Source: Escherichia coli O157:H7 (GTDB taxonomy: Bacteria; Pseudomonadota; Gammaproteobacteria; Enterobacterales; Enterobacteriaceae). Taken from it: 64,000 nt of DNA. How positions within the stretch are numbered: the first letter of the stretch is position 1; each line of letters opens with the position of its first letter. Below the pieces are notes generated by a model that saw nothing but the letters and a program-made list of their open reading frames with translations, did not search any database and was not told where the DNA came from. Shown in pieces: positions 2-17,628 of the stretch. The stretch lies in NCBI RefSeq assembly GCF_013167455.1, contig NZ_CP038328.1. One strand, 5' to 3'. Position numbers and translations under genes: made by a program.

Positions 2-151
2 TTTCAACGGCGAGTACATGCGCAGGTGATGGATTATCTAACAAATGGCATTCCGGAACGCCCGGCACGTTTCATTAAAGCACTACAAAATTATTATCAC
101 ACGCCGGAACTTACGGCGGAACAGTTCCCGTGGCCGGAAGCGCTCAACTGA
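2..151 (+). CDS. epmC: 3' end of an upstream gene (partial, 5' truncated by window edge); position matches epmC/yfcM, which precedes yfcL in K-12
   Basis: Open frame from the window edge to TGA at 149-151, 33 bp upstream of yfcL, same strand. Assignment rests on synteny only. Confidence 0.5.
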   Translation, partial: FQRRVHAQVMDYLTNGIPERPARFIKALQNYYHTPELTAEQFPWPEALN

Positions 152-2748: not shown

Positions 2749-3969
2749 ATGAAACGTGCAGTGATTACTGGCCTGGGCATTGTTTCCAGCATCGGTAATA
2801 ACCAGCAGGAAGTCCTGGCATCTCTGCGTGAAGGACGTTCAGGGATCACTTTCTCTCAGGAGCTGAAGGATTCCGGCATGCGTAGCCACGTCTGGGGCAA
2901 CGTAAAACTGGATACCACTGGCCTCATTGACCGCAAAGTTGTGCGCTTTATGAGCGACGCATCCATTTATGCATTCCTTTCTATGGAGCAGGCAATCGCA
3001 GATGCGGGCCTCTCTCCGGAAGCTTACCAGAATAATCCGCGTGTTGGCCTGATTGCAGGTTCTGGCGGCGGTTCCCCGCGTTTCCAGGTGTTCGGCGCTG
3101 ACGCAATGCGCGGCCCGCGCGGCCTGAAAGCGGTTGGCCCGTATGTGGTCACCAAAGCGATGGCATCCGGCGTTTCTGCCTGCCTCGCCACGCCGTTTAA
3201 AATTCATGGCGTTAACTACTCCATCAGCTCCGCGTGTGCGACTTCCGCACACTGTATCGGTAACGCAGTAGAGCAGATCCAACTGGGCAAACAGGACATC
3301 GTGTTTGCTGGCGGCGGCGAAGAGCTGTGCTGGGAAATGGCTTGCGAATTCGACGCAATGGGTGCGCTGTCTACTAAATACAACGACACCCCGGAAAAAG
3401 CCTCCCGTACTTACGATGCTCACCGTGACGGTTTCGTTATCGCTGGCGGCGGCGGTATGGTGGTGGTTGAAGAGCTGGAACACGCGCTGGCGCGTGGTGC
3501 TCACATCTATGCTGAAATCGTTGGCTACGGCGCAACGTCTGATGGCGCAGACATGGTTGCTCCCTCTGGCGAAGGCGCAGTACGTTGTATGCAGATGGCG
3601 ATGCATGGCGTTGATACCCCAATCGATTACCTGAACTCCCACGGCACTTCGACTCCGGTTGGCGACGTGAAAGAGCTGGCAGCTATCCGTGAAGTGTTCG
3701 GCGATAAGAGCCCGGCGATTTCTGCAACCAAAGCCATGACCGGTCACTCTCTGGGCGCTGCTGGCGTACAGGAAGCTATCTACTCTCTGCTGATGCTGGA
3801 ACACGGCTTTATCGCCCCGAGCATCAACATTGAAGAGCTGGACGAGCAGGCTGCGGGTCTGAACATCGTGACCGAAACGACCGATCGCGAACTGACCACT
3901 GTTATGTCTAACAGCTTCGGCTTCGGCGGCACCAACGCCACGCTGGTAATGCGCAAGCTGAAAGATTAA
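2749..3969 (+). CDS. fabB: 3-oxoacyl-ACP synthase I (KAS I)
   Basis: 406 aa; active-site region [14 protein letters not shown] and C-terminal [13 protein letters not shown] typical of KAS enzymes. Confidence 0.97.
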
Positions 3970-11421: not shown

Positions 11422-12690
11422 ATGATTATCAAACGCACTCCTCAAGCCGCGTCGCCTCTGGCTTCGTGGCTTTCTTATCTGGAAAACCTGCACAGTAAAA
11501 CTATCGATCTCGGCCTTGAGCGCGTGAGCCAGGTCGCGGCGCGTCTTGGCGTTCTGAAACCAGCGCCATTTGTGTTTACCGTTGCGGGTACGAATGGCAA
11601 AGGCACCACCTGCCGTACGCTGGAGTCGATTCTGATGGCGGCAGGGTACAAAGTGGGCGTCTACAGTTCGCCTCATCTGGTGTGTTATACCGAGCGCGTA
11701 CGTGTGCAGGGTCAGGAATTGCCGGAATCGGCCCACACCGCCTCTTTTGCGGAGATTGAATCGGCACGCGGTGATATTTCCCTGACCTATTTCGAGTACG
11801 GTACGCTGTCGGCGTTGTGGCTGTTCAAACAGGCACAACTTGACGTGGTGATTCTGGAAGTAGGGCTGGGCGGTCGTCTGGACGCAACCAATATTGTCGA
11901 CGCCGATGTCGCGGTAGTAACCAGTATTGCGCTGGATCATACCGACTGGCTGGGGCCAGATCGCGAAAGTATTGGTCGCGAGAAAGCAGGCATCTTTCGC
12001 AGCGAAAAACCGGCAATTGTCGGTGAGCCGGAAATGCCTTCTACCATTGCTGATGTGGCGCAGGAAAAAGGTGCACTGTTACAACGTCGGGGCGTTGAGT
12101 GGAACTATTCCGTCACCGATCATGACTGGGCGTTTAGCGATGCTCACGGCACGCTGGAAAACCTGCCGTTGCCGCTTGTCCCGCAACCGAATGCCGCAAC
12201 GGCGCTGGCGGCACTGCGTGCCAGCGGGCTGGAGGTCAGTGAAAATGCCATTCGCGACGGGATTGCCAGCGCAATTTTGCCGGGACGTTTCCAGATTGTG
12301 AGCGAGTCGCCACGCGTTATTTTTGATGTCGCGCATAATCCACATGCGGCGGAATATCTCACCGGGCGTATGAAAACGCTACCGAAAAACGGGCGCGTGC
12401 TGGCGGTTATCGGTATGCTACATGATAAAGATATTGCCGGAACTCTGGCCTGGTTGAAAAGCGTGGTTGATGACTGGTATTGTGCGCCACTGGAAGGGCC
12501 GCGCGGTGCCACGGCAGAACAACTGCTTGAGCATTTGGGTAACGGCAAATCATTTGATAGCGTTGCGCAGGCATGGGATGCCGCAATGGCGGACGCTAAA
12601 GCGGAAGACACCGTGCTGGTGTGTGGTTCGTTCCACACGGTCGCACATGTCATGGAAGTGATTGACGCGAGGAGAAGCGGTGGCAAGTAA
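11422..12690 (+). CDS. folC: Dihydrofolate synthase / folylpolyglutamate synthase
   Basis: 422 aa; Mur-ligase-family P-loop TVAGTNGKGTT. Confidence 0.96.
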   Translation: MIIKRTPQAASPLASWLSYLENLHSKTIDLGLERVSQVAARLGVLKPAPFVFTVAGTNGKGTTCRTLESILMAAGYKVGVYSSPHLVCYTERVRVQGQELPESAHTASFAEIESARGDISLTYFEYGTLSALWLFKQAQLDVVILEVGLGGRLDATNIVDADVAVVTSIALDHTDWLGPDRESIGREKAGIFRSEKPAIVGEPEMPSTIADVAQEKGALLQRRGVEWNYSVTDHDWAFSDAHGTLENLPLPLVPQPNAATALAALRASGLEVSENAIRDGIASAILPGRFQIVSESPRVIFDVAHNPHAAEYLTGRMKTLPKNGRVLAVIGMLHDKDIAGTLAWLKSVVDDWYCAPLEGPRGATAEQLLEHLGNGKSFDSVAQAWDAAMADAKAEDTVLVCGSFHTVAHVMEVIDARRSGGK

Positions 12691-13342
12691 GTTTCAGAAT
12701 CGGTTAGTGGGCACGATCGTGCTGGTGGCGCTGGGGGTGATTGTACTTCCAGGGCTGCTGGACGGGCAGAAAAAACATTATCAGGATGAGTTTGCGGCTA
12801 TCCCGCTGGTGCCAAAAGCGGGCGATCGCGATGAGCCTGATATGATGCCAGCCGCCACCCAGGCGTTGCCGACGCAACCGCCGGAAGGCGCAGCGGAAGA
12901 GGTGCGGGCAGGTGATGCCGCAGCACCGTCGCTCGATCCGGCCACTATTGCAGCCAATAACACCGAGTTTGAACCGGAACCTGCACCGGTCGTCCCACCG
13001 AAGCCGAAACCGGTGGAGCCGCCTAAGCCGAAGGTTGAAGCACCACCTGCGCCGAAGCCAGAACCGAAGCCGGTCGTGGAAGAAAAAGCAGCGCCAACGG
13101 GTAAAGCCTATGTTGTGCAACTGGGCGCGCTGAAAAATGCCGATAAAGTGAATGAGATTGTCGGTAAGCTGCGCGGTGCCGGTTATCGGGTTTATACGTC
13201 GCCATCCACGCCAGTGCAGGGTAAAATTACCCGTATTCTGGTTGGGCCGGATGCCTCGAAAGATAAGCTGAAAGGTTCGCTGGGTGAGTTGAAGCAACTT
13301 TCTGGCTTAAGTGGCGTGGTAATGGGCTATACGCCGAATTAA
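12680..13342 (+). CDS. dedD: Cell division protein DedD (SPOR domain)
   Basis: Likely GTG start at 12680 (220 aa, VASKFQNRLVG..), overlapping the folC 3' end by 11 bp; N-terminal TM helix, Pro/Lys-rich linker, C-terminal SPOR-like domain. Confidence 0.9.
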   Translation: MASKFQNRLVGTIVLVALGVIVLPGLLDGQKKHYQDEFAAIPLVPKAGDRDEPDMMPAATQALPTQPPEGAAEEVRAGDAAAPSLDPATIAANNTEFEPEPAPVVPPKPKPVEPPKPKVEAPPAPKPEPKPVVEEKAAPTGKAYVVQLGALKNADKVNEIVGKLRGAGYRVYTSPSTPVQGKITRILVGPDASKDKLKGSLGELKQLSGLSGVVMGYTPN

Positions 13343-13350
13343 TACGGTCT

Positions 13351-13714
<364 letters not shown>

Positions 13715-13744
13715 TGTCCGATGCCGCAAAGGCATAAAAAGTCG

Positions 13745-13785
13745 ATGGCGTTGAATATTTTTTCAGCGCCATTTTTATTGATGCG
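13745..13785 (+). terminator. Terminator-like imperfect hairpin with T-run downstream of dedD and the REP array
   Basis: atggcgttgaa ... ttcagcgccat (one mismatch) followed by ttttatt. Confidence 0.4.
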
Positions 13786-13801
13786 CGGGAAGGAAATCCC
13801 T

Positions 13802-13817
13802 ACGCAAACGTTTTCTT
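13802..13817 (+). promoter_or_regulatory. PurR operator (PUR box) in the cvpA-purF promoter
   Basis: acgcaaacgttttctt matches PUR box consensus ACGCAAACGTTTNCNT; a tagaat -10-like hexamer follows at 13825-13830. Confidence 0.8.
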
Positions 13818-13873
13818 TTTCTGTTAGAATGCGCCCCGAACAGGATGACAGGGCGTAAAATCGTGGGACACAT

Positions 13874-14362
13874 ATGGTCTGGATTGATTACGCCATAATC
13901 GCGGTGATTGCTTTTTCCTCTCTGGTTAGCCTGATCCGCGGCTTTGTTCGTGAAGCGTTATCGCTGGTGACATGGGGTTGTGCTTTCTTTGTTGCCAGTC
14001 ATTACTACACTTACCTGTCAGTCTGGTTTACGGGCTTTGAAGACGAACTGGTTCGAAATGGGATTGCCATCGCGGTCCTGTTTATCGCCACCCTGATCGT
14101 TGGCGCTATCGTGAACTTCGTGATAGGCCTGCTGGTGGAGAAAACGGGGTTGTCAGGCACCGATCGGGTGCTGGGCGTCTGTTTCGGTGCATTGCGCGGT
14201 GTGTTGATTGTTGCTGCTATTCTCTTCTTTCTCGACTCCTTTACCGGGGTGTCGAAAAGCGAAGACTGGAGTAAATCACAACTGATTCCGCAGTTCAGTT
14301 TTATCATCAGATGGTTTTTTGATTATCTGCAAAGCTCGTCAAGTTTCTTGCCCAGAGCGTAA
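13874..14362 (+). CDS. cvpA: Colicin V production membrane protein CvpA
   Basis: 162 aa, multi-TM; immediately upstream of purF. Confidence 0.93.
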   Translation: MVWIDYAIIAVIAFSSLVSLIRGFVREALSLVTWGCAFFVASHYYTYLSVWFTGFEDELVRNGIAIAVLFIATLIVGAIVNFVIGLLVEKTGLSGTDRVLGVCFGALRGVLIVAAILFFLDSFTGVSKSEDWSKSQLIPQFSFIIRWFFDYLQSSSSFLPRA

Positions 14363-14398
14363 GTGCTCTGAGATGTGGCTTAACGAGGAAAAAGACGT

Positions 14399-15916
14399 AT
14401 GTGCGGTATTGTCGGTATCGCCGGTGTTATGCCGGTTAACCAGTCGATTTATGATGCCTTAACGGTGCTTCAGCATCGCGGTCAGGATGCCGCCGGCATC
14501 ATCACCATAGATGCCAATAACTGCTTCCGTTTGCGTAAAGCGAACGGGCTGGTGAGCGATGTATTTGAAGCTCGCCATATGCAGCGTTTGCAGGGCAATA
14601 TGGGCATTGGTCATGTGCGTTACCCTACGGCTGGCAGCTCCAGCGCCTCTGAAGCGCAGCCGTTTTACGTTAACTCTCCGTATGGCATTACGCTTGCCCA
14701 CAACGGCAATCTGACCAACGCTCACGAGTTGCGTAAAAAACTGTTTGAAGAAAAACGCCGCCACATCAACACCACTTCCGACTCGGAAATTCTGCTTAAT
14801 ATCTTCGCCAGCGAGCTGGACAACTTCCGCCACTACCCGCTTGAAGCCGACAACATTTTCGCCGCCATCGCTGCTACAAACCGCTTAATCCGCGGCGCGT
14901 ATGCCTGTGTGGCGATGATTATCGGCCACGGTATGGTTGCTTTCCGCGATCCAAACGGTATTCGTCCGCTGGTTCTGGGAAAACGTGATATTGACGAGAA
15001 CCGCACAGAATATATGGTCGCTTCCGAAAGCGTTGCGCTCGATACACTGGGCTTTGATTTCCTGCGTGACGTCGCGCCTGGCGAAGCGATTTACATCACT
15101 GAAGAAGGGCAGTTGTTTACCCGTCAATGTGCTGACAATCCGGTCAGCAATCCGTGCCTGTTTGAGTATGTATACTTTGCTCGCCCGGACTCGTTCATCG
15201 ACAAAATTTCCGTTTACAGCGCGCGTGTGAATATGGGCACGAAGCTGGGCGAGAAAATTGCCCGCGAATGGGAAGATCTGGATATCGACGTGGTGATCCC
15301 GATCCCGGAAACCTCGTGTGATATCGCGCTGGAAATTGCTCGTATTCTGGGCAAACCGTACCGCCAGGGCTTCGTTAAAAACCGCTATGTTGGCCGCACC
15401 TTCATCATGCCGGGTCAGCAGCTGCGTCGTAAGTCCGTGCGCCGTAAACTGAACGCCAACCGCGCCGAGTTCCGCGATAAAAACGTCCTGCTGGTCGACG
15501 ACTCTATCGTCCGTGGCACCACTTCTGAGCAGATTATCGAGATGGCACGCGAAGCCGGAGCGAAGAAAGTGTACCTCGCTTCTGCGGCACCGGAAATTCG
15601 CTTCCCGAACGTTTATGGTATTGATATGCCGAGCGCCACGGAACTGATCGCTCACGGTCGCGAAGTAGATGAAATTCGCCAGATCATCGGTGCTGACGGG
15701 TTGATTTTCCAGGATCTGAACGATCTGATCGAAGCCGTTCGCGCTGAAAACCCGGATATCCAGCAGTTTGAATGCTCGGTGTTCAACGGCGTCTACGTCA
15801 CCAAAGATGTTGATCAGGGCTACCTCGATTTCCTCGATACTTTACGTAATGACGACGCCAAAGCAGTGCAACGTCAGAACGAAGTGGAAAATCTCGAAAT
15901 GCATAACGAAGGATGA
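14399..15916 (+). CDS. purF: Amidophosphoribosyltransferase (glutamine PRPP amidotransferase)
   Basis: 505 aa; N-terminal MCGIVGI with catalytic Cys1 of Ntn amidotransferases; PRPP-binding region [13 protein letters not shown]. Confidence 0.97.
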
Positions 15917-15926
15917 TGCCTTCGCT

Positions 15927-15949
15927 CAGGGTGCCGGTCTGGCACCCTG
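15927..15949 (+). other. GC-rich stem-loop between purF and ubiX with no U-tract (possible mRNA stabiliser or processing site)
   Basis: cagggtgcc-ggtct-ggcaccctg. Confidence 0.4.
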
Positions 15950-16010
15950 ACTTGCAACTCCCGCCGAAATCCTGCAAAGTCTGCCTGCAAGTCTGACAGG
16001 GCAACTATTT

Positions 16011-16580
16011 ATGAAACGACTTATTGTGGGCATCAGCGGTGCCAGCGGCGCGATTTATGGTGTGCGCTTATTACAGGTTCTGCGCGATGTCACAGATATC
16101 GAAACGCATCTGGTAATGAGCCAGGCGGCGCGCCAGACCTTATCCCTCGAAACGGATTTTTCCCTGCGCGAAGTGCAGGCATTAGCTGATGTCACGCATG
16201 ATGCGCGCGATATTGCCGCCAGCATCTCTTCCGGTTCTTTCCAGACACTGGGGATGGTGATTTTACCCTGTTCAATCAAAACCCTGTCCGGCATTGTCCA
16301 TAGCTATACTGATGGCTTACTGACCCGTGCGGCAGATGTGGTGCTGAAAGAGCGTCGCCCACTGGTGCTCTGCGTGCGTGAAACACCATTGCACTTAGGC
16401 CATCTGCGTTTAATGACGCAGGCAGCAGAAATCGGTGCGGTGATTATGCCTCCCGTTCCGGCGTTTTATCATCGCCCGCAATCCCTTGATGATGTGATAA
16501 ATCAGACGGTTAATCGTGTTCTTGACCAGTTTGCGATAACCCTTCCTGAAGATCTCTTTGCCCGCTGGCAGGGCGCATAA
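16011..16580 (+). CDS. ubiX: Flavin prenyltransferase UbiX
   Basis: 189 aa; flavoprotein fold with N-terminal GISGASGAIYG. Confidence 0.95.
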   Translation: MKRLIVGISGASGAIYGVRLLQVLRDVTDIETHLVMSQAARQTLSLETDFSLREVQALADVTHDARDIAASISSGSFQTLGMVILPCSIKTLSGIVHSYTDGLLTRAADVVLKERRPLVLCVRETPLHLGHLRLMTQAAEIGAVIMPPVPAFYHRPQSLDDVINQTVNRVLDQFAITLPEDLFARWQGA

Positions 16581-16588
16581 CTCCGCTG

Positions 16589-16613
16589 TTGCCCTGTTTC
16601 AGGGCAATTTTGC
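16589..16613 (+). terminator. Intrinsic terminator after ubiX
   Basis: ttgccctg-tttc-agggcaa followed by ttttg. Confidence 0.7.
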
Positions 16614-16761
16614 AACCGCGATCAAATCCTCGACATTTTGTTTCTGCCATTCAATCGAAACGCTGCGATTCAACCGCTATACCTGCTATCTTCAACTTTA
16701 GGACAATAATGCAACGTCTTATTAACATATTTAACGTTGAATGTTACTGTTGTCGTCAAGA

Positions 16762-16777
16762 TGGCATAAGACCTGCA
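16762..16777 (+). promoter_or_regulatory. Sigma-54 (-24/-12) promoter upstream of argT
   Basis: tGGcataagacctGCat fits the GG-N10-GC spacing; about 70 bp upstream of the argT ATG. Confidence 0.7.
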
Positions 16778-16845
16778 TGAACAAGCCTGCAAACACACAA
16801 CACAATACACAACATAAAAAAGCCATTTTCACTTGAGGGTTATGT

Positions 16846-17628
16846 ATGAAGAAGTCGATTCTCGCTCTGTCTTTGTTAGTCGGTATTTCCGCAGCGGCTT
16901 CCAGCTATGCGGCATTGCCGGAGACGGTACGTATCGGAACCGATACCACCTATGCACCGTTCTCGTCGAAAGATGCCAAAGGTGACTTTGTCGGCTTTGA
17001 TATCGATCTCGGTAACGAGATGTGCAAACGGATGCAGGTGAAATGTACCTGGGTTGCCAGTGACTTTGACGCGCTGATCCCCTCACTGAAAGCGAAAAAA
17101 ATCGACGCCATTATTTCGTCGCTTTCCATTACCGATAAACGTCAGCAGGAGATTGCCTTCTCCGACAAGCTGTACGCCGCAGATTCCCGTCTGATTGCCG
17201 CCAAAGGTTCGCCGATTCAGCCAACGCTGGACTCACTGAAAGGTAAACATGTTGGTGTGCTGCAGGGATCAACCCAGGAAGCTTACGCTAACGAGACCTG
17301 GCGTAGCAAAGGTGTGGATGTGGTGGCCTATGCCAACCAGGATTTGGTCTATTCCGATCTGGCTGCAGGACGTCTGGATGCTGCACTGCAGGATGAAGTT
17401 GCTGCCAGCGAAGGATTCCTCAAGCAACCTGCTGGTAAAGATTTCGCCTTTGCTGGCTCATCAGTAAAAGACAAAAAATACTTCGGTGATGGCACCGGTG
17501 TAGGGCTACGTAAAGATGATGCTGAACTGACGGCTGCCTTCAATAAGGCGCTTGGCGAGCTGCGTCAGGACGGCACCTACGACAAGATGGCGAAAAAGTA
17601 TTTTGACTTTAATGTCTACGGTGACTGA
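16846..17628 (+). CDS. argT: Lysine/arginine/ornithine-binding periplasmic protein
   Basis: 260 aa with signal peptide; close paralog of the adjacent hisJ. Confidence 0.95.

Follow-up and report, generated by a model that had tools for sequence, protein, structure and literature searches.

A PurR operator at the cvpA-purF(-ubiX) promoter of Escherichia coli O157:H7

PurF, the amidophosphoribosyltransferase, is the enzyme of the first committed step of de novo purine synthesis, and in the chromosome of Escherichia coli O157:H7 its gene follows cvpA and a short CpG-centred palindrome. The question raised by this locus is whether the palindrome is the operator at which PurR represses the genes downstream of it, and how it is placed with respect to the promoter and the transcripts that start there. 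PurR, a dimer of the LacI/GalR family, is known from the literature to bind PUR boxes of 16 bp once it carries hypoxanthine or guanine. We analyzed a stretch of 64,000 nucleotides from contig NZ_CP038328.1 (hereafter the window, to whose first letter all positions refer); the features of the control region and its genes lie on the plus strand.

Many O157 chromosomes match window positions 13300-14500 at 100% identity, and the matching region is annotated in them as dedD, cvpA and purF. Three consecutive open reading frames were named by NCBIfam equivalog and subfamily models as cvpA, encoding a colicin V production protein (13874-14362; NF008100, E = 6.6e-101, in agreement with the RefSeq annotation), purF (14399-15916; TIGR01134, E = 9.8e-163) and ubiX, encoding a flavin prenyltransferase (16011-16580; NF004685, E = 5.6e-93), with intergenic gaps of 36 bp between cvpA and purF and 94 bp between purF and ubiX. 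cvpA is the first gene of the regulated operon. The gene for the regulator, purR, lies outside the 64-kb window and is carried by 5424 of the 5426 complete E. coli genomes examined.

The PUR box and its identity with the purF operator

The PUR box, ACGCAAACGTTTTCTT, occupies positions 13802-13817 and is an imperfect palindrome with its centre at the CpG at 13809/13810. It departs at 2 positions from the full palindromic consensus ACGCAAACGTTTGCGT, and it was the single match found in the 64 kb when up to 2 mismatches were allowed, a search in which dinucleotide-preserving shuffles gave an expectation of 0.02. With up to 3 mismatches, 0.56 chance matches were expected per window, and 43 of 100 shuffles contained at least one.

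To score the site quantitatively, we scanned both strands with a position weight matrix (PWM) derived from the 28 PurR motifs that Cho et al. 2011 list in their Table 1 (PMC3159470). From this matrix we excluded the cvpA site itself and, in a second version, also the other published site inside the window (26-27 sites remaining). The PUR box scored 22.0-22.2 bits, a high rather than a poor score, with an exact p of 1.8e-8 per position and about 0.0024 matches of this strength expected per window; 2 of 300 dinucleotide shuffles attained it. Compared by leave-one-out scoring with the other published operators of the regulon, it ranked 6th of 28. The next independent matches in the window were at 13.3 bits inside the nuoC coding sequence and 12.8 bits inside that of pta; no other match in the window exceeded 13.5 bits, and among matches above 8.5 bits none other fell in the dedD-ubiX interval. 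The nuoC and pta matches, both intragenic, were not accepted as functional PUR boxes on the strength of their sequence. Neither was the published ChIP motif of the 'fabB-mnmC' region, ACCAAAGCGATGGCAT, which was found at 3151-3166; its assignment looks doubtful, since it falls within the fabB coding sequence and, scored with a matrix built without it, reached only 9.6 bits.

The box proved to be more than a close match to the PurR operator, which is what the initial annotation had called it. The cvpA-purF-ubiX region is listed in the same Table 1 as a PurR ChIP-chip region detected with adenine only, and its motif, AAGAAAACGTTTGCGT, is the exact reverse complement of window positions 13802-13817; the published motif coordinates, transferred through the K-12 sequence, fall exactly on these 16 positions. 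The same study names cvpA-purF-ubiX among the previously characterised PurR promoters (PMC3159470). Binding in vitro was reported for O157 DNA itself: in electrophoretic mobility shift assays, PurR bound a fragment of the cvpA-purF regulatory region (-171 to +56) that had been amplified from TUV93-0, an O157:H7 derivative, and the phosphomimetic PurR variant Y45E did not bind the cvpA-purF fragment (PMC5829826). The transcription start, ChIP and transcript data used here are from K-12, and their link to O157 is the 101-bp control region at 13776-13876, which K-12 MG1655 shares at 100% identity and which reaches 99% identity or more in 5387 of 5425 complete E. coli genomes.

These observations bear on one alternative, namely that the box is a PUR-like 16-mer that arose by chance and has no regulatory role. 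Such a match is not out of reach of random sequence, as shown by the 0.56 matches expected at 3 mismatches and by the 2 in 300 shuffles that equalled the PWM score; the observed site, however, has just 2 mismatches and the p value given above, lies at -36 to -21 of a mapped promoter for a purine gene, recurs unchanged in 78 of 79 loci across genera (both described below), and is occupied by PurR in vivo (PMC3159470) and bound in vitro (PMC5829826). We regard the probability of a chance match as negligible.

A search of the PDB returned more than 20 solved PurR structures, among them 1PNR, which we take to be the crystal structure of the PurR-hypoxanthine-purF operator complex. Known since the 1980s, the purF operator is the archetype among the operators of the purine regulon, and the K-12 purF operator is said to have been the subject of work by Rolfes and Zalkin in 1988. 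It is also the DNA named in the titles of the PurR crystal-structure papers of Schumacher et al. (1994, 1997), as these titles appear in papers citing them, including PMC5829826. The PUR box at 13802-13817 does not just resemble this operator but is the same site, which had been characterised in K-12 genetically, biochemically and structurally.

Another alternative is that a different repressor of the LacI/GalR family, one with a CG-centred AAACGTTT core, shares the site or is its main user. RbsR, the closest paralogue of PurR, is the obvious candidate, and the PDB search ranked it as the structure most closely related to PurR (E = 4.6e-95); the rbs operator has a central AAACGTTT, and RbsR has been reported on some pur promoters. 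No result of the present analysis connects RbsR with the PUR box, however, and the outer half-site bases of the box (ACGC on the left) agree with the PurR matrix, while the ChIP signal for PurR and its adenine-dependent occupancy are direct evidence for PurR (PMC3159470). Predominant or shared use by RbsR is therefore judged very unlikely, and PurR is retained as the protein that acts here.

Promoter, transcription start and extent of the transcripts

The initial annotation had proposed that the PUR box overlaps the promoter and is followed by a -10-like TAGAAT, and both proposals were borne out by the mapped transcription start. In K-12, SMRT-Cappable-seq placed a transcription start site (TSS) on the reverse strand at NC_000913.3 2430799 (supplementary data 1 and 2 of Yan et al. 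2018, PMC6131387), which maps through identical sequence to the G at window position 13838, the start of the cvpA-purF(-ubiX) transcripts. The TAGAAT hexamer at 13825-13830 then lies at -13 to -8, with the TSS 8 nt downstream of it, and the PUR box spans -36 to -21, covering the -35 region and most of the spacer. Between the hexamer and the TSS lies a G+C-rich discriminator, GCGCCCC (13831-13837, -7 to -1), and the TSS leaves cvpA with a 5' untranslated leader of 36 nt (13838-13873). No entry at the predicted TSS coordinates was found in the available supplementary text of the 2016 Cappable-seq study.

A generic scan for sigma-70 promoters called none at the PUR box and TAGAAT. The scan misses the cvpA promoter because its rule requires at least 4 of 6 matches in the -35 hexamer, and the best -35 candidate, located inside the PUR box, has 3 of 6. 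We rejected this empty result as evidence against a promoter, given an extended -10 element with a mapped TSS. That element, TGtTAGAAT at 13822-13830, was recognised from its sequence and geometry: TG stands one base upstream of the hexamer (-16/-15), the hexamer has the conserved A2 and T6, the -35 is weak, and the distance of 8 nt to the TSS falls within the 6-9 nt set for this class. The cvpA promoter is accordingly classed, from its sequence and spacing, as an extended -10 sigma-70 promoter lacking a usable -35, for which a requirement for the TG is predicted. In vitro, cvpA, purF and ubiX are preferentially transcribed by the sigma-70 holoenzyme (PMC3141248). A table of sigma-factor-dependent transcripts from the same in vitro run-off array lists the intergenic region upstream of cvpA (about 13343-13873, minus strand) as transcribed opposite to cvpA (PMC3141248).

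In K-12, 868 reads started at the position equivalent to 13838 in M9 and 190 in rich medium, counts that are unnormalised and come from media differing beyond purines (PMC6131387); the direction fits purine repression and is only suggestive of it. Folding of the leader RNA (13838-13900) gave no significant structure relative to shuffles (z = -1.6), and a conserved leader structure was dropped since the fold was no better than those of the shuffles. A pairing of CGCCC with GGGCG in the leader was likewise rejected because it would need bases upstream of the TSS.

As to the extent of the transcripts, the long reads contain two operon variants, b2313-b2312 and b2313-b2312-b2311, both beginning at TSS 2430799 (PMC6131387). 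The tricistronic cvpA-purF-ubiX transcript proposed in the initial annotation thus exists, but it is not the dominant species detected: the cvpA-purF transcript is at least as abundant, because many K-12 transcripts end at the position equivalent to 15954, within the purF-ubiX gap. At this K-12 transcription termination site (TTS, 2428683), 254 reads ended and 191 passed in M9, and 113 ended and 25 passed in rich medium (PMC6131387). The 3' end lies 4 nt past a stable hairpin devoid of a U-tract (15926-15954 including the 3' end; 10-bp core stem 15926-15935/15941-15950) with a folding energy of -21.2 kcal/mol (z = -3.7). This hairpin is a partial stop that uncouples ubiX from cvpA-purF, and ubiX is the distal gene, reached via read-through transcripts. 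Our pattern-based terminator scan of 14300-16900 found none in the cvpA-purF or purF-ubiX gaps and 4 intragenic ones against 3.0 expected; it misses the U-tract-less hairpin at the mapped 3' end.

On the other side, the control region is limited by the intrinsic terminator of the accD-folC-dedD transcripts (13744-13777), consisting of a hairpin and T-run (13744-13773) conserved across genera and followed by a 3' end at 13777; the latter corresponds to K-12 TTS 2430860 and lies 25 bp before the PUR box. This terminator marks the upstream limit of the control region. Minor read-through species nevertheless enter cvpA-purF in K-12 from promoters inside folC and upstream of accD, giving the operon variants b2314-b2313-b2312 and b2316-b2315-b2314-b2313 (PMC6131387), and since these upstream promoters read through, the promoter at which repression acts is not the sole route into cvpA-purF. 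The internal starts of the dedD transcripts in the folC coding sequence, known from the K-12 long reads, are at NC_000913.3 2431937 and 2431873 (window positions 12427 and 12491).

The dedD-cvpA spacer itself (13343-13873) measures 531 bp, and its median length in other genera is 233 bp. Several REP/BIME-type units at about 13480-13720, nearly identical and each about 60-70 bp long, account for the excess, and a 1.2-kb query including these units found a median of 25 matching places per E. coli genome. All of the units precede the dedD terminator and fall outside the control region.

Conservation of the operator and promoter across enterobacteria

The locus was compared in 80 enterobacterial loci taken from one-genome-per-species collections and covering about 25 genera, including Escherichia, Salmonella, Citrobacter, Enterobacter, Klebsiella, Raoultella, Kosakonia, Cedecea, Buttiauxella and Mangrovibacter. 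Since the loci were retrieved by similarity of the CvpA protein alone, their choice was independent of the operator. cvpA and purF are co-oriented neighbours in all 80, and ubiX follows purF wherever the retrieved DNA extends far enough. Upstream DNA was long enough in 79 loci, and in each of these the best PWM match within the 400 bp before cvpA lay 70-75 nt ahead of the cvpA ATG; the 16-mer was identical in 78. The sole variant (locus L050) carries A7 to T, which the published PurR sites of tsx and glyA show as well.

The conservation extends beyond the box. Column-wise invariance among the 77 distinct sequences was about 99% over 13792-13841, as compared with identities of 84% at third-codon positions of cvpA, 86% over the whole cvpA coding sequence and 67% in the flank further upstream. 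The longest invariant run in the 2.18-kb alignment, which includes all of cvpA and purF, was 13792-13830 (39 columns), and the next longest measured 17 columns. Within the block, the extended -10 element was about 99.7% invariant among the 77 distinct sequences and the discriminator 97% conserved. Directly 5' of the PUR box, the 10 bp GGAAATCCCT (13792-13801, -46 to -37) were about 99% identical in the 77 distinct sequences, as conserved as the operator, and match no element that we could name. These values demonstrate strong purifying selection on the operator/promoter block.

Which protein imposes this selection is a separate matter, and the invariance cannot separate the constraint from PurR binding from that of RNA polymerase binding because the two overlap. 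The block might in principle be conserved solely as a core promoter, with PurR control of purF being exerted elsewhere. Conservation alone cannot assign the constraint to PurR, and the invariant run at 13792-13841 is indeed wider than the 16 bp of the box, taking in the -10 element, the discriminator and the 10 bp upstream. However, the PWM detected no other PUR box in the locus at which such control could be placed, and the ChIP motif call is the same 16-mer (PMC3159470). The box is moreover a poor -35 (3 of 6 at most), and its precise palindromic sequence is therefore not what sigma-70 would select; the one substitution seen, A7 to T, recurs in known PurR sites. We consider it extremely unlikely that the block is conserved as a core promoter only, and the PurR operator reading is carried forward.

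Repression by PurR and comparison with other PurR sites

The site is almost certainly a PurR operator that represses cvpA-purF(-ubiX) when purines are plentiful, and no result contradicts this reading; the sequence match, the position of the K-12 TSS, the occupancy by PurR in vivo in K-12, the in vitro binding to the O157 fragment and the selection on the block are observations. The hinge helices of PurR enter the minor groove at the central CpG of the operator. When hypoxanthine or guanine is plentiful, the corepressor-bound dimer would settle on the CpG-centred palindrome and bend the DNA, as strong bending of the purF operator by PurR with guanine or hypoxanthine is known from the literature (Schumacher et al. 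1994, 1997, as cited in later papers). Bound at -36 to -21, PurR would occupy DNA that RNA polymerase requires upstream of the -10 element, so that initiation would be blocked and less amidophosphoribosyltransferase would be made. We infer that steric exclusion of RNA polymerase is the repression step from this geometry and from the literature, in which PurR sites are generally described as located between -35 and -10 and as acting on initiation.

Further layers of control may be conceived, such as a second input at GGAAATCCCT, control by ppGpp/DksA via the discriminator, or a PurR roadblock on read-through from dedD/accD, and we hold these to be unlikely, if less so than the alternatives weighed above. 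The GGAAATCCCT block might be a part of the PurR footprint, a contact for the alpha-CTD of RNA polymerase or the site of a second regulator. G+C-rich discriminators are typical of promoters inhibited by ppGpp/DksA, and the composition of GCGCCCC suggests that stringent control may be layered on PurR.

The purF operator of K-12 is the closest point of comparison, having the identical 16-mer and the same 101-bp control region (100% in MG1655), the same position relative to cvpA and the same downstream genes. The dedD-cvpA spacer is 258 bp in K-12 MG1655 and 531 bp in the O157 window, owing to the extra REP-type repeats further upstream, whereas the element itself is the same. The boxes of purT, purHD, purL, purMN, purC and purEK share the 16-bp CG-centred imperfect palindrome ACGNAAACGTTTGCNT; the other promoter-overlapping pur boxes score 17-25 bits by leave-one-out, the range in which the cvpA-purF box also falls, and a location between or over -35 and -10 is typical of them according to the literature, as at cvpA-purF. 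The cvpA-purF box differs from these in its weaker right half-site (AAGAAAAC as compared with ACGCAAAC), and its promoter differs in being of the extended -10 type with no recognisable -35.

The roadblock sites of purB and purR and the remote carAB box involve the same protein and the same motif family. These sites, however, are situated within the transcribed region, or at -128.5, and either interfere with elongation or depend on helper proteins, whereas the cvpA-purF box overlaps the core promoter. The cvpA-purF box might serve as an additional roadblock on read-through from dedD.

The operator was already known, and the value of the site in this window is that of a positive control, in which a genuine regulatory site was recovered, together with its promoter and operon, by reading the raw sequence. 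The analysis adds to what was known that the promoter is of the extended -10 type, that the box sits exactly at -36 to -21 when measured from a TSS mapped on single molecules, that no stretch of the locus is better conserved across about 25 enterobacterial genera than the operator/promoter block, and that 10 invariant bp adjoin the operator.
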